A stretch of 55,360 bases of DNA from Patescibacteria group bacterium (lineage in GTDB: Bacteria; Patescibacteriota; Patescibacteriia; Buchananbacterales; SURF-54): contig JAHIRB010000041.1 of the NCBI GenBank assembly GCA_018818885.1, positions 1 to 55,360 on the forward strand, in the 5' to 3' direction. The translations under genes were made by a program, and so were the position numbers. Position 1 is the stretch's first letter; each line of letters opens with the position of its first letter. Of this stretch, positions 3,130-55,074 are shown in pieces. The notes beneath the pieces were generated by a model that ran no database searches, was not told the DNA's origin, and was given only the letters and a program-made list of their open reading frames with translations.

Positions 3130-4935
3130 ATGATTGAAAAAAGAAAAAATACAAAAAAATTCAAACAAACTAGACAGCTATTCAAACCTAAACAAAAGGT
3201 CAAACAAAACATCCAGAAATCTAACATTCGAGCTGGTAAAAAAATTCAAAGACCAACTCAAACACCAATTTCAAAAAACAGATTAAAAATTATTCCGCTT
3301 GGTGGTTTAGAAGAAGTCGGACGAAATATGACTGTTTTTGAATATGGCAACGATATTGTTATTGTTGATATGGGTTTGCAATTTCCAGAAGAAGACATGC
3401 CTGGAATTGATTATGTTATACCAAACATAGATTACCTTAAAGATAAATCAAAAAATATCCGTGGTGTAATTATTACTCACGGACACTACGATCATATCGG
3501 CGGCATACCTCATTTAATGCCACGGCTTGGAAACCCTACAATTTATACTGCCAAACTAACCGCTGGAATTATTCAAAAACGACAAGAAGAACACAAAAAT
3601 ATACCTAAATTAATTTTTCAAGAAATTAATGAAAGGTCAAAGCTTAAACTTGGTACGTTCAACATCGAATTTTTTCATGTTAACCATAACATTCCAGATT
3701 CTTACGCCGTAGTAATAAAAAGTCCTGTGGGTACCATCGTGCATACAGGTGATTTTAAACTTGATTACGATCCTGTTTACGAAAAACCAGCTGACTTAAA
3801 CCTTATTGCTCAATATGGCAATCAGGGAGTATTAGCCTTGATGGCAGATTCAACAGATGCCGAACATCCCGGTAGCCAGATTTCTGAAAGAGAAGTAGGT
3901 CAAGAACTAGAAAAATTATTTGAACAAGCTCCAGGTAGAATTATTATCGGTACTTTTGCCTCACTACTTTCTCGTGTTCAACAGATATTTTGGATAGCAG
4001 AAAAACTAAATAAGAAAATATTGGTTGAAGGTAGGTCTATGAAAACTAATGTAGAAATTGCCCACAAGCTTGGTTATTTAAAATTCAACCCTAACACTCT
4101 AGTCGACGAAACTAATTTTAGAAGAATTGATGATAAAAAATTAGTAATAATTTGCACCGGTGCTCAAGGAGAAAAAAGAGCAGCCTTAATGCGAATTGCC
4201 AACAACGAACATCGCTTTATTAAATTCAAGCAAAAAGATTCCGTTATCTTTTCTTCTTCTGTTGTGCCAGGGAACGAAAGAACCGTTCAAACTTTAAAAG
4301 ATACAATCTACAAACACGACGCGCGTGTTATTCATTATCAGATGATGGATATCCACGCTGGTGGCCATGCCAAACAAGAAGATTTAAAAATAATGATGAG
4401 GTTGATAAAACCAAGATTTTTTATTCCTATTGAAGGCAATCACTTTATGCTTAGAATCCATGGTGATTTAGCTATAGAAGCAGGCATCAAAAAAGAAAAT
4501 ATAATAATTGGTGAAAACGGTAGAATTATCGAATGCAGTAAAAATCAATGTAAATTGACAAACCATATGGTTCCAGCAGATTATGTTTTTGTTGATGGGC
4601 TTGGCGTGGGTGATATTTCACAGATAGTACTACGTGACAGGCAAATGATGTCAGAAGACGGGATGCTTGTTGTCATTGCTACAATATACAAAAAGACTGG
4701 CCAATTGGCACAAAACCCCGACATTATTTCTAGAGGTTTTGTATATTTGAAAGAAAACAAAAAGTTGATAGAGGAAATTAGAAGCAAAGCTAAAAAGATA
4801 ATGCATGATTCAGATCATAAATCCCCTGCCTTTGAAGGTTACATTAAGGATAAAATAAGAAACGATCTTGGACAGTTTGTTTATAGTAAGACACAACGCA
4901 GACCAATGATTTTGCCGGTGTTGATTGAAGTGTAA
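3130..4935 (+). CDS. rnj: Ribonuclease J
   Basis: PLGGLEEVGRNM, THGHYDHIGG, HTGDFK, HAGGHA, C-terminal RRPMILPV. Confidence 0.97.
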   Translation: MIEKRKNTKKFKQTRQLFKPKQKVKQNIQKSNIRAGKKIQRPTQTPISKNRLKIIPLGGLEEVGRNMTVFEYGNDIVIVDMGLQFPEEDMPGIDYVIPNIDYLKDKSKNIRGVIITHGHYDHIGGIPHLMPRLGNPTIYTAKLTAGIIQKRQEEHKNIPKLIFQEINERSKLKLGTFNIEFFHVNHNIPDSYAVVIKSPVGTIVHTGDFKLDYDPVYEKPADLNLIAQYGNQGVLALMADSTDAEHPGSQISEREVGQELEKLFEQAPGRIIIGTFASLLSRVQQIFWIAEKLNKKILVEGRSMKTNVEIAHKLGYLKFNPNTLVDETNFRRIDDKKLVIICTGAQGEKRAALMRIANNEHRFIKFKQKDSVIFSSSVVPGNERTVQTLKDTIYKHDARVIHYQMMDIHAGGHAKQEDLKIMMRLIKPRFFIPIEGNHFMLRIHGDLAIEAGIKKENIIIGENGRIIECSKNQCKLTNHMVPADYVFVDGLGVGDISQIVLRDRQMMSEDGMLVVIATIYKKTGQLAQNPDIISRGFVYLKENKKLIEEIRSKAKKIMHDSDHKSPAFEGYIKDKIRNDLGQFVYSKTQRRPMILPVLIEV

Positions 4936-21519: not shown

Positions 21520-22449
21520 TTAGGCTACCATCGCGAGATCGATCGAACCCCACGCTTCGGCGAATGCCGTGTATCGTCGTGCTCCCTCCATAAGCACACT
21601 TTCGGAGAAATCGGGATAGAACGGAACTTCCTGCTTGAGCCTGCGGGCTTCATCCACTATATCTTTGTAACCCATAGCGATGAGCGCCTGGCGGAAGTAT
21701 TCTTTGCCCTGATGTTCTATTCTTCCTTCGTTTTCCAGTGCAGCCAGCTCAAAAAAACGATCTTCGTCTTGGGTGTGCCACACATCTCCCAACATAGGTA
21801 TGCGTTGAGGACCAACAAGAGCCACTTCTTTCTTGCCGTCACAGTAGGCGTAGCCGAGCTGACGAGCGAGGGCGGCTGCAATGCCGTCGTAACGATTGAT
21901 CATCGCCCATATTCTTCCTTGAAGGATGGGGTCAATGCTGCACATGAGCATTGCTTCTTCGTTGCTCAGCTCGCGGTCGGTTTCTTCAAACTTGGTCGTA
22001 GCATGGTTTACTGGCCACGGTAGTATTGTGCCTTCCGGCGGCACGCCTTGAGTAGGATCAAAACCATAATCCTCGAGCTTCTTTTTGCCAGACAGCAAGT
22101 CACGGAGAAGGCTTCCCGAAAGCAGATAGCGGGTAATCCACTCGACAGGCAGGATGCAATTGGTGTCTTCCTCGGTCAATGGTCGGCCGAGGATGACATC
22201 GAATTCCCTGACCAATATTTTGGTATCGGTCAACTGTTTGATGAAGGCGGTGGGAATACCGAACCATTTCGCGATCATGGCAGACTTAACCGCCACCGTG
22301 CATATTGCCGCTCCCTTACCGGGAATTTCCTGTTTGGTTCGACCGACGTCGAAGCCCGAAATGTAATTGACAAAATCAAAACCAATTCCTCCGTCTTCAC
22401 GCGTAATATCCTTCGCGCTTCCTTCTCTTGGTATTACTAACCCTGACAT
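21520..22449 (-). CDS. purC: SAICAR synthetase (divergent)
   Basis: EGSAKDI, ISGFDV..IPGKG, PVEWITRYLLSGS, TTK, DGKKE, DEDRF. SD before ATG 22449. Confidence 0.88.
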   Translation of the reverse strand: MSGLVIPREGSAKDITREDGGIGFDFVNYISGFDVGRTKQEIPGKGAAICTVAVKSAMIAKWFGIPTAFIKQLTDTKILVREFDVILGRPLTEEDTNCILPVEWITRYLLSGSLLRDLLSGKKKLEDYGFDPTQGVPPEGTILPWPVNHATTKFEETDRELSNEEAMLMCSIDPILQGRIWAMINRYDGIAAALARQLGYAYCDGKKEVALVGPQRIPMLGDVWHTQDEDRFFELAALENEGRIEHQGKEYFRQALIAMGYKDIVDEARRLKQEVPFYPDFSESVLMEGARRYTAFAEAWGSIDLAMVA

Positions 22450-22468
22450 CTTTACATCACCTTCCTCT

Positions 22469-23005
22469 CTATTGCTGTTCCTTGAGTTTCTTTTCCGCGT
22501 CTTCGATTGCTTCCTCCAGACTGCGATCAACGGTTGAACGTGACTCCGGCTTCTTTATTTCTGGAAATTCTCCATTGACCGCAAACGCACAAGCTTCGAG
22601 AAAGCCCATCTCACCGATAAAATCATTAAAGACGACTTGTGTTCCAGGAACACACGTGATGCTCAGAATCGCTGCTCGGTTCAATTCCGACTGATCGGCT
22701 TCGAATGCTACTCCGATAAAAGTGGTTTTAATGTCATTGAGGACATATCGAGCATAGGCTTCCAGTGAACCTGTCAAATGATTCGCGTGACCTGCGCCGA
22801 GAATCCAAGCGTCGATCTTTCCGAGCCAATTCTTGATTGTCTCACGTGACTCATCTTGATTCCGATGAAAACTCGAGGTTTTAAAAATCTTTACCTCGAC
22901 CAAGCCTTCTTTTTCTACTTCTCTGAGATACTTAAGACCTCGTAAGCATTGCGGCAGATCGCTATCTGAGCCGATCATAATTCCGACTTTTCTGACCTTT
23001 GCCAT
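22469..23005 (-). CDS. purE: AIR carboxylase / N5-CAIR mutase family (divergent)
   Basis: VGIMIGSDSDL, SSFHR, GAGHANHLTG, FIGV. Confidence 0.85.
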   Translation of the reverse strand: MAKVRKVGIMIGSDSDLPQCLRGLKYLREVEKEGLVEVKIFKTSSFHRNQDESRETIKNWLGKIDAWILGAGHANHLTGSLEAYARYVLNDIKTTFIGVAFEADQSELNRAAILSITCVPGTQVVFNDFIGEMGFLEACAFAVNGEFPEIKKPESRSTVDRSLEEAIEDAEKKLKEQQ

Positions 23006-23006
23006 A

Positions 23007-23078
23007 CTATTCCTCCTCGGATACTTCTTCCTTGCTTAGGTTTGGATCAAGTGGCACAAACAACCATTTTCGCTTCAA
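23007..23078 (-). CDS. 23-aa small ORF coupled to purE (MKRKWLFVPLDPNLSKEEVSEEE)
   Basis: AAAGGAG SD, TTG start, TAG 1 nt before the purE ATG. Confidence 0.4.
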   Translation of the reverse strand: MKRKWLFVPLDPNLSKEEVSEEE

Positions 23079-23123
23079 GCTATCAACTCCTTTCTGTAGT
23101 GGTGTGATTAATTTTCATAGAGC

Positions 23124-23198
23124 AAAAAAACTCTTTCCTCCCTGGAAAAGAGCCCTCCTTGTGATTAGTATCTTATATAAAATCGTTAATTTAGTCAA
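23124..23198 (-). promoter_or_regulatory. purEC promoter plus leader terminator-like hairpin
   Basis: TTGACT-17-TAAGAT, then GGAGG-GCTCTTTTCC-AGGGA-GGAAAGAG-T7. Confidence 0.65.
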
Positions 23199-23204
23199 TT
23201 ATAA

Positions 23205-23238
23205 GAGGGCAGGTCTGCTTTTTGCAGTACCTGCCCTC
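23205..23238 (-). terminator. Hairpin after the purH C-terminal gene
   Basis: GAGGGCAGGT..ACCTGCCCTC. Confidence 0.65.
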
Positions 23239-23258
23239 GATATTTTTTCCTCCGTGGT

Positions 23259-24329
23259 TTAGTGTCCGAAAAAACCTCTCATTTCGGCGTCCGGTTTCAT
23301 ATACAGAGTTACACCGTGCTTCTCGCACAGCGCGATGATTTTTTCGTCGTTGATGGAACCACTGGTAGCGAATATCGCCCGTATGCCCGCATCGATCAAA
23401 ATTTGAGGGCCATCCCTAAATGGGAAAAAGCTGTCGCTATCTGCAACCACCGGTGCACCCGGATCATGGAGTACGTGATTTGCATCCCTGGCCAACCAAA
23501 CAGCCAAGTGGCAAGCAATGTAACTCGCCTGCTGTCCAGCACCATTGCCGACAAGTTGTCGACCCTTTACCAAGGTAATGGTATTGCTGTTGGATGTGGC
23601 GTTGATTGACCGGCCGAAAAGCAGTGCCTCTTCGTACTTTGAATACGGTGTACCGTAGATTGCCAAACCAGGGTCGTTGAAATTCAAAACCGAACTATAG
23701 GCATCCTGGTCAAGAAATCCTTTTCGCACTGGTCGAATTACTGACTCTGTGTCCATACATTGGCCATGAAGATTTTCCAATGCTGGATTAACAATCAAAC
23801 GGCATTTTCCCGACTTACGCGACAAAATATTGACCGCATCTATCTCGAAGCTTGGTGCTATTACGGTATCAAGCTGTGCTTTACCCTCTATTAGCAGAGC
23901 TTGTGCGATCTCTTTGGTACACTTCTGGTTCATGATCACCGAACCACCAAATATCGCTAGAGGGTGACCCGCCATCATCAATCGCGCGGCTTCAGCGAAA
24001 TCTTCGTCCATTTCACACCACGCTGCACCACATGGATTTCCATGTTTCACTCCGATAATTATTTGAGCTACTTTGAGCTCATTTACCCAACGGGCAGTAG
24101 CATAGTGTGCCATGGTGGCGACAAGGCGATCGGTGTCACACCAATTGTTGAAACTGCGATCGCTACCTTCCTGTATCAAGAAGTTTGCCATTGCCAAAGG
24201 ATCTTTGGTGTGGTCGGGGCCGTCTTGTGTTGAAAAAAGACTCGCGCCCTTTTGATCCTTGTTTTCACCATATTTACATCGATCGACTTGTTTTCCCGAA
24301 ATTGTTACTTCTATTCCATCATCAATCAT
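23259..24329 (-). CDS. purH: AICAR transformylase (PurH C-terminal domain as a separate gene)
   Basis: KYGEN, VKHGNPCG, GAGQ, SDSFFPFRDG, GSIND. Own SD-like purine run and ATG 24329. Confidence 0.88.
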   Translation of the reverse strand: MIDDGIEVTISGKQVDRCKYGENKDQKGASLFSTQDGPDHTKDPLAMANFLIQEGSDRSFNNWCDTDRLVATMAHYATARWVNELKVAQIIIGVKHGNPCGAAWCEMDEDFAEAARLMMAGHPLAIFGGSVIMNQKCTKEIAQALLIEGKAQLDTVIAPSFEIDAVNILSRKSGKCRLIVNPALENLHGQCMDTESVIRPVRKGFLDQDAYSSVLNFNDPGLAIYGTPYSKYEEALLFGRSINATSNSNTITLVKGRQLVGNGAGQQASYIACHLAVWLARDANHVLHDPGAPVVADSDSFFPFRDGPQILIDAGIRAIFATSGSINDEKIIALCEKHGVTLYMKPDAEMRGFFGH

Positions 24330-24348
24330 TTTCTTACCTGTCCTTTCC

Positions 24349-24957
24349 TTAGTTTCTTTGCGCTGCCAGATAGCCAGCGATTGCGCGGTCGTATTGCTCG
24401 GTGTGCTCGAAAACTTCGCAGGCCAGCTTGTACCGGAGTTCTTCCGGAATCGTTCCCTTGCCTTTTTCCAGCGCCACGGCGATCTGCTGATACCTGTCGG
24501 GATTGCAGATGACGACGACGTCGCGATAGTTTTTGGCCGCTGCCCGAAGCATAGTCGGACCACCGATGTCGATCTGCTCGATTGCATCTTCAAGCTTGAC
24601 ACCTTCTTTCGCGACTGTTTCCTGAAACGGATACAGATTGACGACGACGATGCTTATTAGACTGAGGCGACGTCTTCTCATGGCTTTCATGTGTTCTATG
24701 TTTTCACGTTTAGCCAGAATGCCGGCGTGAATTTTCGGATGGAGAGTTTTTACCCGTCCGTCCATCATCTCCTTGAAACCTGTGAAATCCGCCACCTCGC
24801 GAACCGGTATTTCCGAATCATCGAGCCTTGTTGCTGTGCCGCCTGTCGATAAGATGCCATCGACATTTCCGTATTTGAGAATGGCTTCAGCTATAAACTC
24901 AACATCTTTTTTGTCTGAAACGCTGATTAATTTCCAGTTTGGTAGTACGATATCCAT
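24349..24957 (-). CDS. purH: IMP cyclohydrolase (PurH N-terminal MGS-like domain as a separate gene)
   Basis: LISVSDK, STGGTA, DGRVKTLHPKIHAGILA, VNLYPF, IDIGGPTMLRAAAKN. Confidence 0.93.
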   Translation of the reverse strand: MDIVLPNWKLISVSDKKDVEFIAEAILKYGNVDGILSTGGTATRLDDSEIPVREVADFTGFKEMMDGRVKTLHPKIHAGILAKRENIEHMKAMRRRRLSLISIVVVNLYPFQETVAKEGVKLEDAIEQIDIGGPTMLRAAAKNYRDVVVICNPDRYQQIAVALEKGKGTIPEELRYKLACEVFEHTEQYDRAIAGYLAAQRN

Positions 24958-24975
24958 GTTCTTTCTTCTCCTTTC

Positions 24976-26409
24976 CTAGACAGTAAGCCTAAGTTTTCGT
25001 TCTGCCTCTTTCTTAGCCAGCTTGACACAATCGCCAATATACTTCTCTGGATTTTTCATCAGCTTCTTTATGTTTTCGTCCACTCCTTCCCATGCCAACT
25101 GAAGATCTGGTGACTCCGATCCATTCTTAATGATCAGCTCTACATTTGTTGCCAAATCATCACCAAACATCTTTGCCTGAGGAATTAATAATTTGTTTAC
25201 AAACTGATGAGAATCCTTGAGTCCAGAATGCTGCAATGCCAAATGCATCAGCTCGGCCATAACCACATACATGTCTTCTTCGAAATTTACTCTTGCGCGC
25301 TCGTGGTCGAACTTGAAGGATTTGAAAATCCTCTTGGCAGTTTTTAGCTGCTGGAAAACATATACCAGTATGGCAGAGTAATCCCGCATAACGCAGGAAT
25401 TACGCAGATCCCTTTGCAGATCACTAACAAGATTCAGCAAAGGTTTACACAGTTCAGCAAAAGTGAGAATCTGCATCCCGGCGATGTTTTCTCCGGCTAT
25501 TGGATTTGCTTTCTTGTGAGCCATTGTAGAAGAAGACGATGACGCTGAAAGGACTTCACCAAACTCAGGAGCCTGCAAAATCCTAATATCTTCTCCCAGC
25601 TGAGCTAACGACCCAGAAAGCATGTAGCTTTCAAACAAAAATCGTGTAATTGCCTCAGGCGGGGGTATTTGGGTTGAAATTCTAGGCTGTGCAACACCCA
25701 TCATTTTCAACGCCTCTTCTTCGTAATCTCCTGCCTGACTGATCAACACCCTTCCGGCAGCTTTTGAACCCACTGCTCCAGAAAACTTGCCCAAAAGCTG
25801 GCCATTTCGTCTTGCCATCTCGGACACGTTATCGAAAAACCTTGCATGCGCAGAGGCTAACCAAAACCCTGCGGTTATGGGTAAAGCATGTTGAATATGC
25901 GTTCTACCCATTTGTATATACTCTGCGGTTTCTGCAATCCTTTGTCGCCACAGTTCATCAACTTCCAATATCATCGGCACAAAAGCCTTATTAAAAGTGT
26001 ATTTATACTGCAGGCTATAAGCCGTACTGATGACATCATACGAGGTTAATGAATAGTGCAGCCACTTGTGCAATGGCTCCGGCATAGCGGCTCTCATCAG
26101 CTGAAGCAAGGCTAAAATGTCGTGTTTTAGCTTGTCTTCAACTTTATCCATCTGGCTTGTTGTTATTGCCAACACCTTAGCAAAGTTTTCTTTTGTCAGA
26201 TGCTTAGCGTCTTCTTCGGGCATAATCCCCTTTTTGGCCAGAAACAACAACCACATCCATTCAACGATTACTAACCAAGTTGCCCATGTTCCATATGCGA
26301 GATACATCAGCAACTGCTCTGGCTGATAACGAGGGTTACCAGGCATGTCCTTACGACGTCCCAGAGTTTCAGAAGCTACCCTTAATGCAAACTCTATCAA
26401 ATCTCTCAT
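24976..26409 (-). CDS. purB: Adenylosuccinate lyase (divergent)
   Basis: KHD, HYSLTSYD, MGRTHIQHALP, SGAVG, SSTMAHKKANP, RDLRNS. Confidence 0.9.
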   Translation of the reverse strand: MRDLIEFALRVASETLGRRKDMPGNPRYQPEQLLMYLAYGTWATWLVIVEWMWLLFLAKKGIMPEEDAKHLTKENFAKVLAITTSQMDKVEDKLKHDILALLQLMRAAMPEPLHKWLHYSLTSYDVISTAYSLQYKYTFNKAFVPMILEVDELWRQRIAETAEYIQMGRTHIQHALPITAGFWLASAHARFFDNVSEMARRNGQLLGKFSGAVGSKAAGRVLISQAGDYEEEALKMMGVAQPRISTQIPPPEAITRFLFESYMLSGSLAQLGEDIRILQAPEFGEVLSASSSSSTMAHKKANPIAGENIAGMQILTFAELCKPLLNLVSDLQRDLRNSCVMRDYSAILVYVFQQLKTAKRIFKSFKFDHERARVNFEEDMYVVMAELMHLALQHSGLKDSHQFVNKLLIPQAKMFGDDLATNVELIIKNGSESPDLQLAWEGVDENIKKLMKNPEKYIGDCVKLAKKEAERKLRLTV

Positions 26410-39933: not shown

Positions 39934-40032
39934 TTTAATTCTTAAATAATTAAAAAACACCTCTGTTAGCTTATTGCATATAGCAAATGGCATATGGCAC
40001 ATGGCCATAAGCAATAAGCTATTAGCTAAATG

Positions 40033-40425
40033 CTACTCGAGGAGTTTTTGAAATATAGTGCCGCTATGAAATTGTAGGGCTAAAGTATCAAAAGATTTGG
40101 TTAATCTATAATAATGATTTTTAAACTTTTCTATACGGTGCTCATTCAACATAGAATCAAGTTGAACATATACTACCGTAGCTGCAGCTGCAATTAGAAG
40201 TGATATTAATAAAAATATAATCCATTCTAGTTTTGCTAAAAAGATTGTTTGCAAAAATGCTAAGTGTTGGTCGTACATATTACCACCACAACTTTTTGCG
40301 CCCGTACTATCCATTGCAGCTCCCATACTAAACCCACCGTGTCCGCATTGAGGTAAAGAAAAAACCAACAGCACAGCTGATAGGATAAAAATTATTGAAA
40401 AAATTGTGAATAAATACTTTTTCAT
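40033..40425 (-). CDS. Hypothetical membrane protein with a Cys/His/Met loop
   Basis: Two TMs around CGHGGFSMGAAM..C..HL; first gene of the redox unit. Confidence 0.65.
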   Translation of the reverse strand: MKKYLFTIFSIIFILSAVLLVFSLPQCGHGGFSMGAAMDSTGAKSCGGNMYDQHLAFLQTIFLAKLEWIIFLLISLLIAAAATVVYVQLDSMLNEHRIEKFKNHYYRLTKSFDTLALQFHSGTIFQKLLE

Positions 40426-40514
40426 AGTTATTGTAGTATAGTAGATAGTTACATTTTAGTCAAGAAGAAAGGGCGAACACTTTTGCGTTCGCCCCTAATG
40501 TTTGGGTTTTTGAC

Positions 40515-40874
40515 CTATTGGACACACCACCCGTTTAGCGATGTTGCGGGAGCGAAACCAAGCCTCTTTTTGGCTTGATCCTTAAAAACTTCAAAATTGT
40601 CCCGAAGTTTTTCTGTGGGAAAATTCAAACTCCGCATAAAACCAGATTCCAGACAATCGACTACAATATGCTGGCACGCAATACATCTTTCGACATGCCC
40701 CTTGATGACCGAAATCATCTCTTGGACATCACCCAGTTGGCCCAAAAAGCAGGCGCAAACCAGATCTTCGGATGGATGAACTGTGAGTTCATCATTTGGT
40801 GATCCAAAGTGCTCAGACTGAGCGAGCCACTCTTCGAACGCCTTGAGGGTAATTTCACGATTCAGTTTTAACAT
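40515..40874 (-). CDS. ORFan with a zf-HC2 (anti-sigma-type zinc finger)-like motif
   Basis: HPSEDL..LGQL...GHVERCIAC; AAGGAGG SD; terminator hairpin at ~40470-40496. Confidence 0.65.
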   Translation of the reverse strand: MLKLNREITLKAFEEWLAQSEHFGSPNDELTVHPSEDLVCACFLGQLGDVQEMISVIKGHVERCIACQHIVVDCLESGFMRSLNFPTEKLRDNFEVFKDQAKKRLGFAPATSLNGWCVQ

Positions 40875-40952
40875 TCCTTCCTCCTTATGCAATAGTTTGT
40901 ATTGCTCTAGCCCCTTGGTTAGTTCACAATGAGATATGTTATCAAATTTATA

Positions 40953-41058
40953 TTATAATGTCAACTCCCTCACCAATTCATACTTGTACTGTGTGGGATA
41001 CTGTCCATAACACCAGGACGTTAGGAGATATAAAAAATCCTTATAAATGCAAAAGGGA
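40953..41058 (-). pseudogene. Gene 3'-end remnant, copy 1 (..FLYLLTSWCYGQYPTQYKYELVRELTL*)
   Basis: Similar to 41811-41941 and 43047-43098; no in-frame start. Confidence 0.7.
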
Positions 41059-41123
41059 CGACATCACAGGTCATCCCTATATACGCTTCCTATGAAACGT
41101 TCATTCGTTAGTGATTGTGGTAA

Positions 41124-41744
41124 TTATATCAGTTCGTATACGGCGTTGAGCGATTCTATTCCTTTTTCCTCTTCGGGCCTCCAGTCCCAATAGTTGAATT
41201 TCTGTTTGCCGTAAGTAGTACCGCTTGCACTCCCTGAAAGCAATAGCAATTGCAATGTCCATGCTGGCCATTGTGTATAGCGGGCAAGAACACTGGCCAC
41301 AAAGCATTTGGCGTTTTTTGGATTATGTTCATCCCCACTCGTATGCAATTTCATGCGAACGACATCCTTACCCCCAACTTCATGCTCATGGAGTATTGAC
41401 TCCACGATTTTTGCCAGAAATTCAGGGTCGGCACAGCAGAAGCGAGCCCCACGCAGAAAGACTCTTTTCTTTGGCGGTGTATCAAGTTTTCGCATAACGA
41501 GAGGAAATCTTTCTCCGAAGTCGTCGGAGAAACCCTCATCAGGGTTAGGCCACAGCTTGAGGCACTCTCTCGTGAAAGCGACAGTGCGTGTGTTGTCGGG
41601 ATACGATTCCGCAACAAATGCTTCAACTTCTACGAGTTCCTCAAGGGTATTGAGGGAGTCCAGAAAAAGTACGAGTGAGTGAGAATTGTTATCCTTTGCG
41701 AATGCTTCTTCCATGTCCCTTCGTTGCTCATCAGTAAGCCCCAT
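41124..41744 (-). CDS. Hypothetical protein (ORFan)
   Basis: AAGGAGG SD; GC-richer; 206 aa. Confidence 0.7.
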   Translation of the reverse strand: MGLTDEQRRDMEEAFAKDNNSHSLVLFLDSLNTLEELVEVEAFVAESYPDNTRTVAFTRECLKLWPNPDEGFSDDFGERFPLVMRKLDTPPKKRVFLRGARFCCADPEFLAKIVESILHEHEVGGKDVVRMKLHTSGDEHNPKNAKCFVASVLARYTQWPAWTLQLLLLSGSASGTTYGKQKFNYWDWRPEEEKGIESLNAVYELI

Positions 41745-41810
41745 CGTCAATCCCTCCTTATCTCAATTTTTGTCCATCCACAATCACAATAGAATGTAAT
41801 CATAAATAAC

Positions 41811-41941
41811 TTAATATGTCAATTCTCTAATTAACTCATACTCATATACTGTGGGATACTGTCCACCCGCTTCGACTCGCGAAGCGAGGCGAGTAACACC
41901 AAGTGATTAGGTAAAGAAAAAACCCTTGTAAATAAAAGGGA
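41811..41941 (-). pseudogene. Gene 3'-end remnant, copy 2 (..FLYLITWC[REP]YGQYPTVYEYELIRELTY*)
   Basis: 28-bp palindrome inserted at 41866-41893 relative to copy 1. Confidence 0.7.
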
Positions 41942-41958
41942 TTTTAACTGAATAATAA

Positions 41959-43014
41959 CTATTCAATAGTGATTTTAATTGGTTCGCCAAGTTTAAAATA
42001 TTTTGGCTCCTCTTGTCCATAAATCGCTCTTACAACATAGTCAGATTCAAGATTCTTATCATCACGCTCATAAAGTTGTACCTCAATCGTATTATTGTCT
42101 ATCCAATTTATTGCATTATCAACAGTTAAATAGAGGCCATGGCCATAAGATAAAATTGCTGCGTCATTAGGTATTGTATATACTCTTTTCAAACGTTGAT
42201 TGGTCTTAAAATCGTAAAGATGCAGTTGTATATTTTTTTCATTATTTCCGCCGAGTACAACTTCAATTGCTTGCTTTCCATCAGGCGAGGTAAATACTAA
42301 ATAGCCCCAGCCTAGCCAATTTGGCAAGTCTGCAAAATGGAGTTTATATTCTTCCGTTTTAGTATTAACTACAAGATACGGCCCAATGAAAAAACACCCC
42401 GCACATCCTGCACCACCACTTAAATAAATATGCAAATTATCTCCATCTTTGAATCTAAACCATTCATTTGCTCCTTCGCCAAGCCCTTTTTGTCCTTCTG
42501 GTTTTTCCAAGCTTACCTCGGCTAACAGATTGAACGTGGACATTCTTTCACCATTACCGTAAAAACACCCATTTATAATATTGTATTTATTTGATTCTAA
42601 TTCTGCATCAAGAGTATCAAGACATTTGCCAATGTAATACTCCGTTATTTCTTCCTTCTCAGCAGTATAATTACAGCCATTTACTTTTAACCAATAGTAA
42701 TACTTTTCATTTTTCCCTCTCGCAATTTCTTCTTCTAGTGTGGGACTGCAAATCAAGTTTGGTAAATTACTAAGTAAAGGGTAATCCTCTATTTCTAATG
42801 AGTCTTCTTGGATATTTTTTTGTTCCTGGCTTGTCGGAGATGTTGGTGTTTCTTCTTTTAAACAAATGGTCTTTTCGGACAAAGTTTTAAATTCTGAAGA
42901 ACATTTTTGTTCCATACTATTTAATTCATGTTGTTGCCACCAATAAACACCTCCACCAGCTAAACCAGCCGTAATAATGGCAGTCAAAATAATACTTACT
43001 ATCAATTTGTTCAT
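41959..43014 (-). CDS. Membrane-anchored or secreted hypothetical protein
   Basis: N-terminal TM ending AGGGVYWWQ; GGAGCAGC motif. Confidence 0.75.
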   Translation of the reverse strand: MNKLIVSIILTAIITAGLAGGGVYWWQQHELNSMEQKCSSEFKTLSEKTICLKEETPTSPTSQEQKNIQEDSLEIEDYPLLSNLPNLICSPTLEEEIARGKNEKYYYWLKVNGCNYTAEKEEITEYYIGKCLDTLDAELESNKYNIINGCFYGNGERMSTFNLLAEVSLEKPEGQKGLGEGANEWFRFKDGDNLHIYLSGGAGCAGCFFIGPYLVVNTKTEEYKLHFADLPNWLGWGYLVFTSPDGKQAIEVVLGGNNEKNIQLHLYDFKTNQRLKRVYTIPNDAAILSYGHGLYLTVDNAINWIDNNTIEVQLYERDDKNLESDYVVRAIYGQEEPKYFKLGEPIKITIE

Positions 43015-43046
43015 ACACTTTCATTATACCAAAAAATTGTCTTTTT

Positions 43047-43098
43047 TTAAACCAGCTCCCTCACCAATTCATACTCATATCCTGTGAAATGCTGCCAC
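43047..43098 (-). pseudogene. Gene 3'-end remnant, copy 3 (WQHFTGYEYELVRELV*)
   Basis: Begins immediately after the REP palindrome at 43103-43123. Confidence 0.65.
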
Positions 43099-43136
43099 CT
43101 TCGGCGAGGCAAGATGCCTCGCCTGTGTTGGATTAA

Positions 43137-43694
43137 TCAAATATGATATTTTGTATCGACAATCAAATATGGCCAATTATTTGGGTTATCAACATAACCA
43201 TGTTTTATTGGATTATTGTATATATATTCATAATGGTTTTCAAAATCGTTTTCGTTATCGTTCTCAATAACGTGATAATAGAAACTCCGTTGCCAAACAT
43301 GTTTTAAATTTTCATCCACCTCAGAGGTGAGGCTTCCAGCCTCACCCTTATGATTATTGTGACTCGGCGAGGCAAGGATGCCTCGCCTCTGATTTGTGGT
43401 TATACTTCGCCTATGATTGTTTATCTTCTGTGCTGAATAACTCTTCAAATCATGCATTATTTCGGAAATGTTTTTCTTTTTGGGTATTAACAACAAATGA
43501 AAATGGTTGTGCAACAAAACGCAAGCTGACAATTCGAAATCACCACGCTGTTTTAAAAATAACAATGTATTTAAAAAAATCTTGGCATAAATTTCGTTTT
43601 GAAAAATTCGTTTATTCTTAAATGTTTTAACTGTTACGAAGTAATAACAATGTTTAAGATATATCCTTTTCGTCTTGTTTTTATATTTGTACAT
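43137..43694 (-). mobile_element. REP-associated tyrosine transposase (RAYT, Y1/HUH)
   Basis: YFVT, LHNHFHLL (HUH), LKS.SA..IN, WQRSFYYH.I, YIYNNP.K.G.V; REP palindromes inside and downstream. Confidence 0.9.
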
Positions 43695-43696
43695 GT

Positions 43697-45214
43697 TTAT
43701 TCCACTTTTGGCCGATACTGCAACGCCTCCGCTACGTGCTTTAATTCTATAGGTTCTGACTTTTCCAAATCAGCTATTGTTCTGGCTAATTTAAGTATAC
43801 GAAAATATGAACGTGCAGATATATTTAATTGACCTACTGCTTGGCGTAGCAATTGGGTTGTTTTTTCGTCTATTGAGCAAAACTTCTTGGTTTTTTGTGA
43901 AGACATTTCTGAATTGGTAATAATACCGAGTTTTTGAAATCTTTTTCGTTGAATTTGCCTTGCCCCTTCTACACGTTTTCTGATATCTTTTGATTTCTCA
44001 CCTTCTGTATCTGTAGTTAATTTTTCAAATTTTACCCTGGGCACTTCAATATGAAGATCGATTCTATCCAACAAAGGTCCTGATATCTTTTTTTGATATT
44101 TGATTATGTTTGATGGCGAACATACACATGCCTTTTCTACGTCTGTGAGATAACCACAAGGACACGGGTTCATCGCAGCTACTAAAATAAACTTGGCAGG
44201 AAACTGTAAAGTACCAGCAGCACGTGAAACTGAAATGATACCATCTTCTAACGGTTGGCGTAAATTTTCCAAGACTAGTCGAGGGAACTCTGGAAATTCA
44301 TCTAAAAACAATATTCCACGATGTGCCAACGAAATTTCACCTGGTTTTGGCCACGTGCCACCACCAACAAGCGCAACGCTCGATGCAGTATGATGTGGAG
44401 ATCTTAAGGGACGTTGAGTAATCAAAGGCTGTCTATGCGGTAAAAGACCAGCTACACTATATATTTTAGTAACAGCTAAGCTTTCGGTCATAATCATTTC
44501 GGGTAAAATTGAACTCATCGTTTTTGCCAGTAGCGTTTTTCCAGAACCTGGCGGGCCAGACATTAGGATGTTGTGCCCCCCCGCAGCAGCTATTTCTAAT
44601 GCGCGTTTTGCTTGCTCTTGCCCTTTTACGTGTGTCATATCAGAATCAAAATGTCTTTTTGATACTTTAAAATAATCTGCATTATTTTTTGCTGGTTCGA
44701 TATGTAGTTTATCTTCACAATATAAAACTAAATCAGATAAACGTTCTATAGGTATTGCCTCTACACCGCAGACTAAAGCAGCTTCATTCGCATTCTCTTT
44801 TGGTAAAAATATCTTTTTTATGCCCTGCTGTAGCGCAAATAATGCGATAGAAAGTGCACCATTGATTGGACGAAGCCTGCCATCCAGTGCAAGCTCACCC
44901 ACAAAAAGACATTGGTCATCAATATTATGGATTTGTCGTGATAAAGATAAAATACTAACTGCAATGGGAAAATCATAAGCAGGTCCCTGCTTTTTTAGAT
45001 CAGCAGGAGCTAAATTTATGGTTAGACGAATCCGAGGCATCTCATATCCTGAATTTTTTATTGCTGACCTAACTCGTTCTTTGGCTTCATCAACGGATTT
45101 GTCTGGCAGACCCACAATGAAAAACTTTGGTGTGCCACCAGAAACATCTGCTTCAACTTCTACTAGCTGACAATCAAGCCCAACCAAGGCAGCTGAATGT
45201 ACTTTTGAAGACAT
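43697..45214 (-). CDS. comM: YifB/ComM Mg-chelatase-like AAA ATPase
   Basis: IVGLPD, INLAPADL.K.G, GPPGSGKT, SPHHTAS, LFLDEFPEF, MNPCPCG, SGPLLDRID. Confidence 0.95.
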   Translation of the reverse strand: MSSKVHSAALVGLDCQLVEVEADVSGGTPKFFIVGLPDKSVDEAKERVRSAIKNSGYEMPRIRLTINLAPADLKKQGPAYDFPIAVSILSLSRQIHNIDDQCLFVGELALDGRLRPINGALSIALFALQQGIKKIFLPKENANEAALVCGVEAIPIERLSDLVLYCEDKLHIEPAKNNADYFKVSKRHFDSDMTHVKGQEQAKRALEIAAAGGHNILMSGPPGSGKTLLAKTMSSILPEMIMTESLAVTKIYSVAGLLPHRQPLITQRPLRSPHHTASSVALVGGGTWPKPGEISLAHRGILFLDEFPEFPRLVLENLRQPLEDGIISVSRAAGTLQFPAKFILVAAMNPCPCGYLTDVEKACVCSPSNIIKYQKKISGPLLDRIDLHIEVPRVKFEKLTTDTEGEKSKDIRKRVEGARQIQRKRFQKLGIITNSEMSSQKTKKFCSIDEKTTQLLRQAVGQLNISARSYFRILKLARTIADLEKSEPIELKHVAEALQYRPKVE

Positions 45215-45251
45215 AAGTTAAATTTAATTCCTAATACTCAATATCCAATTC

Positions 45252-45621
45252 TCAATTATCTTTTTTTGTTTTTGTGCTACTAACAATTACAATAAAAATC
45301 AACATTAATTCTCTTGCTTCTGCCTTTAATCTCTGTGCCTTATCCCTACTTTCCGGTATAGCTGTAACTATCATTTTAAACCAATGTTGTACTTCCTTTG
45401 CTTCCTTTTTACATATGCTTATTTTATGTATAAAATCTTTTTTTGATTCAGCACAGTCAGCTTCACAATAATTAGATCCAACGCTAGTGGCCGCCCTAAC
45501 CAGCTGATTGATCAACGGGTAAGTAATTACATTTCTTGGAATCGTTTTTGCAAATTCTATAACATTTTCCCCAAACTTTGATGTTCGTTCTTCTAAATCG
45601 TATACTTGAAGTTTTTGACAT
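45252..45621 (-). pseudogene. Four-helix-bundle protein (23S rRNA IVP family) with a frameshift near the start
   Basis: YDLEERT..F..QLVRAATSVGSNYCEA..AESKKDF.HKI..KEA.E. ATG 45621 is out of frame by one base; A5 run at 45612-45616. Confidence 0.75.
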
Positions 45622-45717
45622 TGGATATTAGATATTTTATTGGTTATTGGTAATTAGATATTGGAAATAATAATAAAAACAGCACAACATTTGCGCCGTT
45701 ATTTTTTATTATTTATT

Positions 45718-46170
45718 CTATTTTTTATTAAATATTCTTAGGCGATCCAATACCAACAGTCCTACACCTAATGTTATCATAACATCTGCAACATTGAAAA
45801 CCGTAAAATATTTTAAATCAATATAATCAATAACATAATTATATTTGAATCTATCTATAAAGTTAGAAAAACCACCAGCGATAATTAAATTTAGTACTAC
45901 AAAAACAAAATAGTTTTTTTCTTGATATGCCTTGGTGGCAAAGTAAACAAGTAAAGCTAATATTGCTACAACCAAGGGTACAATAATTAATGTTGGCAAA
46001 TGTATGCCGAAAGCCACACCTTCATTAAATTCTGTATGAAACGAAATAAATCTCGATAAAAAAACCGGCTCCGCGCCGACGTAGTAAAAATATATTTTAA
46101 GTACTCTGTCTAATATAAATAATAGCAAAACTAAATCAATTGTCAGCCATGCTTTGACTTTAAACTTCAT
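45718..46170 (-). CDS. lspA: Lipoprotein signal peptidase II
   Basis: D..LK, NEGVAFG, GGFSNFIDR, VIDYI, VFNVAD. Confidence 0.93.
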   Translation of the reverse strand: MKFKVKAWLTIDLVLLLFILDRVLKIYFYYVGAEPVFLSRFISFHTEFNEGVAFGIHLPTLIIVPLVVAILALLVYFATKAYQEKNYFVFVVLNLIIAGGFSNFIDRFKYNYVIDYIDLKYFTVFNVADVMITLGVGLLVLDRLRIFNKK

Positions 46171-53537: not shown

Positions 53538-53918
53538 CTATGTGGCCATAACCGGCACGTTGAGTCGTTTCATAATCTCTTCCATAACCTCAGCGATCTC
53601 TATATGACCGCGTTCACGCGCGAACTCAATCGCAGTGTAACCCATTTTATCTCGTGCGGTTAATATCTCTGCCGGGTCTTTTCCCCCGAACATCTGGCTC
53701 AACATATTCGGGGCACACTCGTTACTAATCAATTGCAATAATGCCTTTGTACTTTCTGGGCACTTGCTAGTACCCATGTACTGCCAGATATTGCTACCTG
53801 AATCGGTTACTGCGTCCAACCTACCTCCTGCGGTCAATTCCGCAATCACATTAGAGGCATTATCATTCTGCAATGCCGATTCCATCGTTTGAGTGGTCAA
53901 AGGTGGTAATGAGCTCAT
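53538..53918 (-). CDS. Ankyrin-repeat-like ORFan
   Basis: ARDKMGYTAIEFARERGHIEIAEVM; GGAGG SD; own promoter; terminator at ~53488-53521. Confidence 0.65.
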   Translation of the reverse strand: MSSLPPLTTQTMESALQNDNASNVIAELTAGGRLDAVTDSGSNIWQYMGTSKCPESTKALLQLISNECAPNMLSQMFGGKDPAEILTARDKMGYTAIEFARERGHIEIAEVMEEIMKRLNVPVMAT

Positions 53919-54129
53919 AATTCCTCCATTAGTTATGGCTTAACAATCGTTGAGTACACAATATCCAATTTTGGATATTTCAATAGATATTATCATTATA
54001 TTATAGATGATGTCAAGATGTTGTTAAAAGACTAAAAGTGTCGTAAAATGAAATTAATGGAATTTATTCCATTAATTTCATCCCGAACGATCCACTTTTA
54101 TATAGTTGAGTCGAGGGATCTCCCAACCT

Positions 54130-55074
54130 ATGCCTTCCAACGAAATTCAAAAACTCTTAACTGACTTTCTAAACTACCTCGAAATAGAACGTGGTAGAAG
54201 TTTGTATACCATAAAAAACTACGAATTTTACTTAACTCGTTTTATAAAATGGTCAAAGATTACCTCCCCCGCCAAAATTGATATGGACTTAGTGCGCGAA
54301 TTTAGACTTTGGCTAAATAGACTTTCAAGAAAAGATGGAACATTAAAAAAATCTACACAAAACTATCACTTGATAGCATTAAGAGCATTTTTGAAGTATC
54401 TGACAATACGTGACATCAAAACAATGGCACCAGAAAAAATTGAGCTAGCAAAAATGCCTCAAAGACAAGTTGAATTTTTAGAAGGTTCTGATTTAGAACG
54501 TCTTTTGACTGCTCCCCTACAAACAGACGACAAAAAAATAATTCAAACACGCGATAAGGCAATACTTGAATTATTCTTCTCCACCGGACTTAGAGTTTCC
54601 GAACTAGCGTCAATAAAAAGAGAAAATGTTAATTTTAAAAAAGACGAATTTACTATTCGAGGCAAAGGTAGCAAACTCCGCATTGTCTTTATGTCTAACC
54701 AAGCTAAGCACTGGGTAAAAGAGTATCTAAATAAACGATCAGATCCAACTGAATGGTTATTTATAAGACACGACAAAGCAAAAAGATCATCAGAAAATAA
54801 AGGAAAACATACAGAAGGATTAACACCACGTTCTATTCAAAGATTAGTGCAAAAATACACCAAACGCGCAGGCATCACTAAACATGTCAGCCCACACACC
54901 TTAAGACACTCATTTGCCACTGATTTACTAAAAGGTGGTGCTGATATCAGAGAAGTTCAAGCAATGCTTGGTCATGCATCAATTACCACAACACAAGTCT
55001 ACACTCATATTACAGATAAACATTTAAGTGAAATACATAAGAAATATCATGGGAAAAGTATTGAAGACAAGTAA
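54130..55074 (+). CDS. xerC: XerC/XerD-family tyrosine recombinase
   Basis: RDKAILELFFSTGLRVSEL, GKGSK.R, HTLRHSFAT, LGHASITTTQVY. Confidence 0.88.
   Translation: MPSNEIQKLLTDFLNYLEIERGRSLYTIKNYEFYLTRFIKWSKITSPAKIDMDLVREFRLWLNRLSRKDGTLKKSTQNYHLIALRAFLKYLTIRDIKTMAPEKIELAKMPQRQVEFLEGSDLERLLTAPLQTDDKKIIQTRDKAILELFFSTGLRVSELASIKRENVNFKKDEFTIRGKGSKLRIVFMSNQAKHWVKEYLNKRSDPTEWLFIRHDKAKRSSENKGKHTEGLTPRSIQRLVQKYTKRAGITKHVSPHTLRHSFATDLLKGGADIREVQAMLGHASITTTQVYTHITDKHLSEIHKKYHGKSIEDK

Follow-up and report, generated by a model that had tools for sequence, protein, structure and literature searches.

How did three unrelated genes come to stand one behind the other, each preceded by a copy of the same short segment, at the flank of a transposase gene? 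This question is raised by positions 40,515 to 43,694 of contig JAHIRB010000041.1 from a Patescibacteria group bacterium (assembly GCA_018818885.1; order Buchananbacterales), which we analysed within a window comprising the whole stretch of 55,360 nucleotides (nt). Here, comM and a gene for a RAYT-like transposase of the Y1 type are followed on the minus strand by three genes, for proteins of 351, 206 and 119 amino acids (aa), and by the repeats R3, R2 and R1 that precede these genes. Our tentative answer, to which we assign a probability of about 0.4, is that gene after gene was inserted at the RAYT flank and that every insertion duplicated a module there, the copies of which provide promoters; the mechanism we infer as follows. 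The repeats R1 to R3 would descend, with divergence, from a single intergenic module that belongs to the DNA 3′ of the comM-linked RAYT gene and comprises a gene-end terminator, an imperfect palindrome, a stop-ended reading frame of 17-20 codons and a sigma-70-type promoter, with the palindrome serving also as a landing site of 28-nt hairpins that resemble repetitive extragenic palindromic (REP) sequences. Each insertion of DNA at this flank would have copied the module, either through duplicative insertion or through import of the module along with its cargo, and each added gene would have come to lie behind a module copy of its own, from the promoter of which it is probably transcribed. The origin of the copies by serial insertion, the involvement of RAYT or the hairpins, the firing of the promoters and the descent of the frame from a coding 3′ end are what we infer from the arrangement described below.

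The recurrence of one segment between the genes emerged from several comparisons. A repeat search recovered a family of three direct copies of 72 nt, with identities of 74% and 61%, and one 21-mer is present twice, where 0 are expected. The local alignment scores of 61 (R1-R2), 42 (R1-R3) and 38 (R2-R3) were reached in 0 of 300 shuffles, the means of which were 16-17.5. Across the 1.35-Mb genome, an nhmmer profile of the module finds exactly three places (E-values 3.6e-38, 1.8e-31 and 2.5e-10; the next match has 6.9), all within a single 2.2-kb stretch, and neither blastn nor tblastn adds a further copy in this genome; thus, the repeats form a local array and no dispersed repeat family. The proteins encoded between the copies are mutually unrelated, with no pair below an E-value of 1. 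A previous interpretation made from the letters alone (hereinafter, the sequence-only reading) described the locus as a cassette-like array, in which one repeated segment is interleaved with unrelated genes, and the repeat statistics together with the gene comparison bear this description out. Along the minus strand, the features are, in order:

comM, 43697-45214, minus strand: Mg-chelatase-like competence ATPase with Pfam matches to Mg_chelatase (E 1e-93), ChlI and Mg_chelatase_C; conserved left neighbour of the array.
RAYT-like Y1 transposase gene, 43137-43694, minus strand: 185 aa, Pfam PF01797 (Y1_Tnp), E 1.8e-8.
GC hairpin between RAYT and R3, 43103-43123, minus strand: belongs to a 28-nt block that borders the R3 core on its 5′ side.
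R3, 43023-43100, minus strand: degenerate core (43047-43100) and a promoter-like site, TTTAAA-17-TATAAT, before the 351-aa gene.
351-aa orphan gene, 41959-43014, minus strand: N-terminal hydrophobic segment; G+C content at third codon positions (GC3) 0.26.
R2 module, 41768-41946, minus strand, as delimited by the nhmmer envelope and alignments: terminator (41923-41940), palindrome, hairpin insert (41866-41893), tail frame and promoter-like site TTGACA-18-TACATT.
206-aa gene, 41124-41744, minus strand: strong AAGGAGG ribosome-binding site; GC3 0.48.
R1 module, 40910-41059, minus strand: 3′ arm of a terminator (41054-41078), palindrome, tail frame ending in WCYGQYPTQYKYELVRELTL and a stop, and promoter-like site TTGACA-17-TAACAT with a TG extension.
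119-aa orphan gene, 40515-40874, minus strand: AAGGAGG ribosome-binding site; GC3 0.45; H-x3-C-x2-C motif.
Strong terminator at the array end, 40469-40496, minus strand: 12 pairs, 7 of them G-C.

The gene that follows the closing terminator has a promoter of its own, unrelated to the repeats.

The homology between R1 and R2 spans ~150 nt, from the terminator to the region of transcription start, and is longer than the sequence-only reading had it; the two units share their left boundary and diverge by ~25% over the whole length. Each starts with the weak hairpin that terminates the preceding gene and with a T-run; next come the imperfect palindrome CCTAAC...GTTATGG, the stop-ended frame and the promoter, in which TTGACA overlaps the last codons and is followed by a spacer of 17-18 nt, a TAnnnT box (in R1 accompanied by TG) and ~10 more conserved bases. 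In R3, the 50-nt core alone is kept, along with a TATAAT promoter of its own. The frame is 17-20 codons long, and its translations, as given previously, are correct: R2 ends in GGQYPTVYEYELIRELTY and R3 in RWQHFTGYEYELVRELV, each followed by a stop, as in R1. A promoter-like site scoring 10 of 12 lies at every repeat end, so that the -35-like TTGACA in which R1 and R2 were said to terminate is recovered by the promoter scan, and terminators precede R1 and R2. At the same point, directly 5′ of TGG(A)CAG, R2 and R3 each contain a 28-nt GC-rich hairpin, the sequences of which differ. The hairpin on the R3 side (43103-43123) is a near copy of the first of two hairpins located inside the RAYT gene, and that of R2 recurs in other contigs of the metagenome runs considered below (loose ends at 41863 and 41893). 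Overall, 242 GC-rich REP-like hairpins were found in this genome, and GC hairpins of the GGCGAGGC type yield 14 loose matches elsewhere. A structured RNA, which the sequence-only reading had named as an explanation that would undo its own, is not indicated: at E ≤ 1, an Rfam search of positions 40000-46000 returned only two matches, both below threshold, attributable to chance and located outside the repeat cores, and no family matches the cores themselves.

Contigs from four runs belonging to three groundwater studies, all representing one strain, were compared with the locus. R1 is bridged by contigs of other runs (40929-41218 and 40846-41082) and R3 by a contig of another run (42999-43409), in each case with 0 differences. 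This independent bridging shows that neither R1 nor R3 is an assembly artefact, a possibility raised in the sequence-only reading; R2 is bridged by one run only, possibly the source run. Some joints in the run contigs, with sides of 24-34 nt and several mismatches, read as comM of other organisms, and none of these supports excision. The variable number or order of cassettes that was to be sought among strains did not appear in the four runs, a weak test given that the strain is the same; because a single strain is sampled, the runs say little on evolutionary turnover.

RAYTs are widespread, single-copy, domesticated transposases, and their benefit to the host is still debated. We inspected 5 of the 12 comM-RAYT orthologous loci returned, which come from two families of the order. 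In 5/5, comM directly precedes the RAYT orthologue and, as in the genome studied here, only a few bases separate the comM stop from the RAYT start. Thus, comM and RAYT are a conserved gene pair, the functional reason for which is not obvious, and RAYT is no recent arrival. The content downstream of this pair varies between genera, with the DNA after RAYT being different in all five loci: an orphan open reading frame (ORF), greA, a convergent peptidase gene, a duplicated half of RAYT, and an insertion sequence (IS). The RAYT orthologues are 50-66% identical, and all keep two in-frame GC hairpins inside the ORF, which in our sequence occupy 43366-43387 and 43326-43346 and encode RRGILASP and GEAGSLT, and which recur at the same places in orthologues with 53-66% identity; REPs usually flank RAYT genes rather than reside within them.

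Direct repeats at RAYT flanks are found also outside the array. The RAYT paralogues in the same genome belong to other subtypes (26-36% identity). One of these, on contig 30 (L067), is flanked by 46-nt direct repeats with 76% identity (3938-3983 and 4706-4751), the repeat containing the last codons of the paralogue and half of its terminator; another, on contig 34 (L070), by 108-nt direct repeats with 92% identity (4054-4161 and 4764-4871). In the orthologue from G020 (G020:C53, 1486-2488), the 3′ half of the gene is tandemly repeated in units of ~350 nt that start from the internal hairpins; this tandem half adjoins a run of N and may be either real or a scaffolding effect. The only other copy found of the module itself lies in G027, a genome of the same order but of another family. 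Here, a 415-aa gene and its terminator precede the module, the right end of which abuts a 150-nt copy of the RAYT 3′ end that is 95% identical to the full comM-linked RAYT gene on another G027 contig; the homology of the G027 module with R1 and R2 stops at the right boundary that R1 and R2 have in common. Hence, in 2/2 genomes bearing the module, it touches the comM-linked RAYT or a fragment thereof. Furthermore, on G027:C8, a gene beside the RAYT fragment, for a 623-aa surface-protein-like product, and a small reverse ORF lie between direct repeats (1766-1820 and 4378-4432) that correspond to the hairpin region downstream of the RAYT fragment. Taken together, the RAYT-flank repeats in G027, G020 and the paralogues speak for a connection of duplication with the flanks of RAYT genes. 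Several other apparent likenesses were discarded. Resemblance of the module to RAYT-downstream DNA of relatives is marginal (G022-R1 was reached by 4/300 and G013-R3 by 1/300 shuffles); the similarity between G020 and R3 is accounted for by the shared hairpin; and that of the left part of the module to the DNA after RAYT on G027 contig 24 is due to chance, the match spanning the junction of a multicopy IS. The tail was absent from six metagenome loci with RAYT relatives.

Among 5.8e9 clustered proteins, the 351-aa and the 119-aa proteins each match nothing but themselves. The 206-aa protein has one homologue, encoded on a 101-kb contig; the identity is 33% (E 2.9e-13), and conserved blocks indicate a real but very rare family. 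Accordingly, of the three genes previously called ORFans, two retain this status and the 206-aa gene loses it. None of the three cargo proteins has a match in Pfam, PHROGs or PADLOC, and no relative of the 206-aa protein was found in viral contigs. The AlphaFold2 models, with a predicted local distance difference test score of 42 for the 206-aa protein and 47, are too poor to use; for the 119-aa protein, an Atlas feature search points to zinc-finger/zf-HC2 clusters (0.91-0.94), which we treat as a lead only. With GC3 values of 0.20-0.31 in most neighbouring ORFs, the 206-aa and 119-aa genes are compositionally foreign. Given that R1 and R2 have diverged by about a quarter, yet the cargo is still foreign in composition, import of the module together with its cargo fits better than an old in-place duplication.

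The sequence-only reading explained the array differently, namely, as dead 3′ ends of one coding parent gene. Serial integration of tail-replacing elements would have left them behind as a stack of old tails, with remnants of an element after each. We consider this model doubtful, even though part of the evidence favours it. The same stop-ended frame is open in all four copies; of the 13 differences between R1 and R2, 8 are at third positions (hypergeometric P=0.018); the residue changes in the G027 copy are conservative (Y/F, L/I, V/I); and two of the cargo genes are of foreign composition. The model also recalls tandem integrative arrays at gene 3′ ends (attL/attR, in tRNA or tmRNA genes), in which, similarly, stop-ended, start-less copies of a frame are embedded in DNA of foreign composition. 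Unlike in those arrays, no intact target gene, integrase or parent family was found at this locus, the array being headed by RAYT, and the presumed elements are single genes of 0.4-1.1 kb. The sole Phage_integrase protein among the 48 window ORFs searched against Pfam (54106-55071) is located 11 kb away and is Xer-like, with SAM_1 and integrase domains. The claim that the tails diverged as coding sequence is weak: the third-position bias is there, but the key periodic R1/R2 changes replace G by A, as AT pressure in this genome would promote, so that mutation bias alone favours them too; conditional on this pressure, the signal drops to ~P=0.07, and the third-position excess is absent from R1/R3 and R1/G027 (all by hand count). 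Moreover, upstream of the W codon, the homology between R1 and R2 is at the DNA level, continuing through the terminator with a 1-nt indel, and hence is non-coding there. A coding origin of the frame is thus no more than suggested by the sequence.

A parent gene was not encountered at any depth of search. The statement that the window contains none was correct, and it extends to the whole genome (tblastn and nhmmer): tblastn with the three tails retrieves the array copies only, apart from one match with E 0.077 that lies within a long ORF. In 31 genomes of the order, a protein profile matches 2, the genome studied here and G027, neither with a parent; in 401 genomes of the class, the profile and the degenerate pattern WCYGxYPT find this genome only; a strict 20-base pattern run over 185,579 species genomes finds G027 and a chance match in a thiG-like ORF of a Desulfovibrio metagenome-assembled genome; and among 1,835,955,588 representative proteins, the profile has a single match (E 3.7e-4), a tandem-repeat protein artefact. 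The 5 matches from a pattern scan of viruses look like chance, one being inside a 244-aa phage ORF, and blastn against phages yields 40-nt chance matches only. The sequence-only reading had itself named the lack of a full-length parent gene as telling against it, and, as far as the order and class genomes and the 1.84e9 proteins reach, there is none; this is weak evidence, because a 19-position profile detects near-identical tails only.

Three further explanations invoke no separate parent gene. The tails could represent an older, longer 3′ end of RAYT itself that was duplicated along with the flank. Indeed, only one TGA separates the RAYT frame from its continuation in R3, where the hairpin encodes RRGIL in the same frame as does the hairpin inside RAYT; also compatible with this origin are the junction of the G027 copy to a RAYT 3′ fragment, the tandem copies of the RAYT 3′ half in G020, and the arrangement on contig 30, where a dead copy of the paralogue's last codons and terminator stands before the gene. 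Nevertheless, we regard this origin as quite unlikely. A profile-profile comparison of the tail with the RAYT orthologues gives a probability of 0.15% over 1 aligned column, all orthologues end 2-13 residues past the WPxL motif without a tail, and no convincing alignment exists between the RAYT 3′ end and the left portion of either R1 or R2. Without the 28-nt hairpin, the frame shifts; given that the continuity between R3 and RAYT rests on this insert and that the profile comparison is empty, it is probably coincidental.

At the ends of insertion sequences, an outward TTGACA typically overlaps the final codons of a frame closed by a stop, and the module frame resembles this pattern, as would be expected if the repeats were remnants of IS right ends, in which a terminal repeat with an outward-facing -35 element accompanies the final codons of the transposase. 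G027 does contain a multicopy IS end (54 nt, 100% identity, at at least 10 contig ends), one copy of which is located 70 nt after the comM-linked RAYT. However, there is no homology between the module and that IS end; the bases in common span the IS junction, and no transposase with such a tail turned up in the genomes and proteins enumerated above. Dispersed copies are missing from the nhmmer scan of the genome, and the left boundary shared by R1 and R2 is unlike random truncation of an IS. We give this explanation very little credence. The simplest alternative is plain local duplication of a promoter-bearing intergenic region, or a shared operator, in which case no capture mechanism would be involved and the coding appearance would be a coincidence. 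The confinement of the copies to one 2.2-kb stretch, the near-consensus promoter in each and the static state of the locus in four runs all agree with it, and so does the precedent: similar promoter regions before non-homologous genes, including putative mobile promoters, are documented in prokaryotes (PMC3575422). As in that description, similar promoters here precede non-homologous genes, and the module region is common to two families; in contrast to it, the copies are tandemly interleaved at one locus, include ~100 nt upstream of the -35 element and are tied to RAYT. Such reuse leaves unexplained the copy that is fused to a RAYT fragment in the genome of another family, the position of two genes of foreign composition exactly behind copies, and the two hairpin insertions at one point, and we deem it unlikely.

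The duplication of a RAYT-flank module, which we favour, also faces a number of difficulties. There are three copies for three genes, with no fourth copy closing the array, and, with its host-like composition, the 351-aa gene need not have been imported. The region as a whole contains no excess of promoter-like sites (14 vs 10.0 ± 3.2 in shuffles). Wherever the four runs cover the locus, there are 0 differences and no joint skips a cassette; neither an insertion intermediate nor an empty site nor polymorphism was seen in their contigs. In 3/6 related RAYT loci, no direct-repeat family was reported, in 2/3 of the remaining ones, the repeats are mainly hairpin repeats in or just after RAYT, and no comparable arrays are present in these relatives. 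With four copies in two genomes only, any inference on history is thin. Finally, the module has no stable common fold. As single-stranded DNA, it folds no better than shuffles where the hairpins are lacking (z -0.05 for R1 and -1.26 for the G027 copy); the inserted GC hairpins account for the low z in R2 and R3 (-3.51 in the R3 stretch). A Y1 enzyme would be expected to require a hairpin.

Among characterized systems, REP/REPIN-RAYT comes closest, with a single-copy, vertically kept Y1 gene (PF01797), GC-rich hairpins beside it and a repeated flank tied to the gene. The differences are considerable: the module is 60-150 nt long, is found only beside the gene, bears a promoter, brackets genes and has no stable fold; instead of a cognate short palindrome dispersed over the genome, there are 3 module copies, all in the array; and the hairpins occur also in frame inside the RAYT ORF. 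Nor does the locus conform to IS200/IS605 elements, in which distinct ends with subterminal hairpins flank a multicopy tnpA; here, such ends are not seen, and RAYT has no left end because comM abuts its start. Cassettes of integrons are mostly promoterless and contain attC at the 3′ end, the attC sites being imperfect hairpins of ~55-140 nt that fold as single strands. The array resembles an integron in that a recombinase-like gene at one end is followed by unrelated small genes on the same strand that are split by related sites. Unlike in integrons, the neighbour of the array is a Y1 transposase rather than IntI, there are three sites for three genes, and the sites precede the genes, each with a promoter-like site and without an attC-like fold. 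The integron-like character proposed in the sequence-only reading is thus contradicted by the absence of IntI and of an attC-like fold and by the promoter-like site that each gene has to itself. The part that it gave to RAYT nicking or ComM-linked transformation is conjectural.

A bolder version of our proposal would make the domesticated Y1 protein, whose gene has stayed beside comM throughout an order of groundwater bacteria with small genomes, the recombinase of a miniature gene-capture platform, with the module as the insertion site and integron-like accretion driven by single-strand HUH chemistry in place of a tyrosine recombinase; every capture would copy the module and thereby provide a promoter. 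We rate this as highly unlikely. If true, RAYTs would gain a host-level role in gene gain, and no cassette platform that works without an integrase would have been known before. As it stands, the locus provides a small, well-defined test case, in which repeats with promoters alternate with orphan genes at a site of variable content, rather than an established system.

Two other candidates considered for the array were rejected. The 206-aa gene is flanked by a 19-nt inverted repeat with 84% complementarity, but a match of this quality is expected by chance in a region of 3.7 kb. A diversity-generating retroelement, with template and variable repeats, is incompatible with the absence of a reverse transcriptase among the 48 window ORFs scanned and with differences that are not confined to adenines.

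Elsewhere in the window, next to comM, an 87-aa ORF of the 23S-rRNA-IVS/four-helix-bundle family (45252-45621; Pfam E 9.6e-13, profile positions 32-101) is overlapped on its upstream side by a short ORF and may be a truncated or frameshifted copy. The genes for SAICAR synthetase, AIR carboxylase, AICARFT/IMPCHase and adenylosuccinate lyase (21523-26409), with GC3 of 0.44-0.55 compared to ~0.25 in their neighbours, look like a block of four purine-synthesis genes from a donor of higher GC content. A 126-aa ORF adjoining the gene for ribosomal protein S15 (53541-53918), without a match in Pfam, is a compositional outlier too, with GC3 of 0.51.

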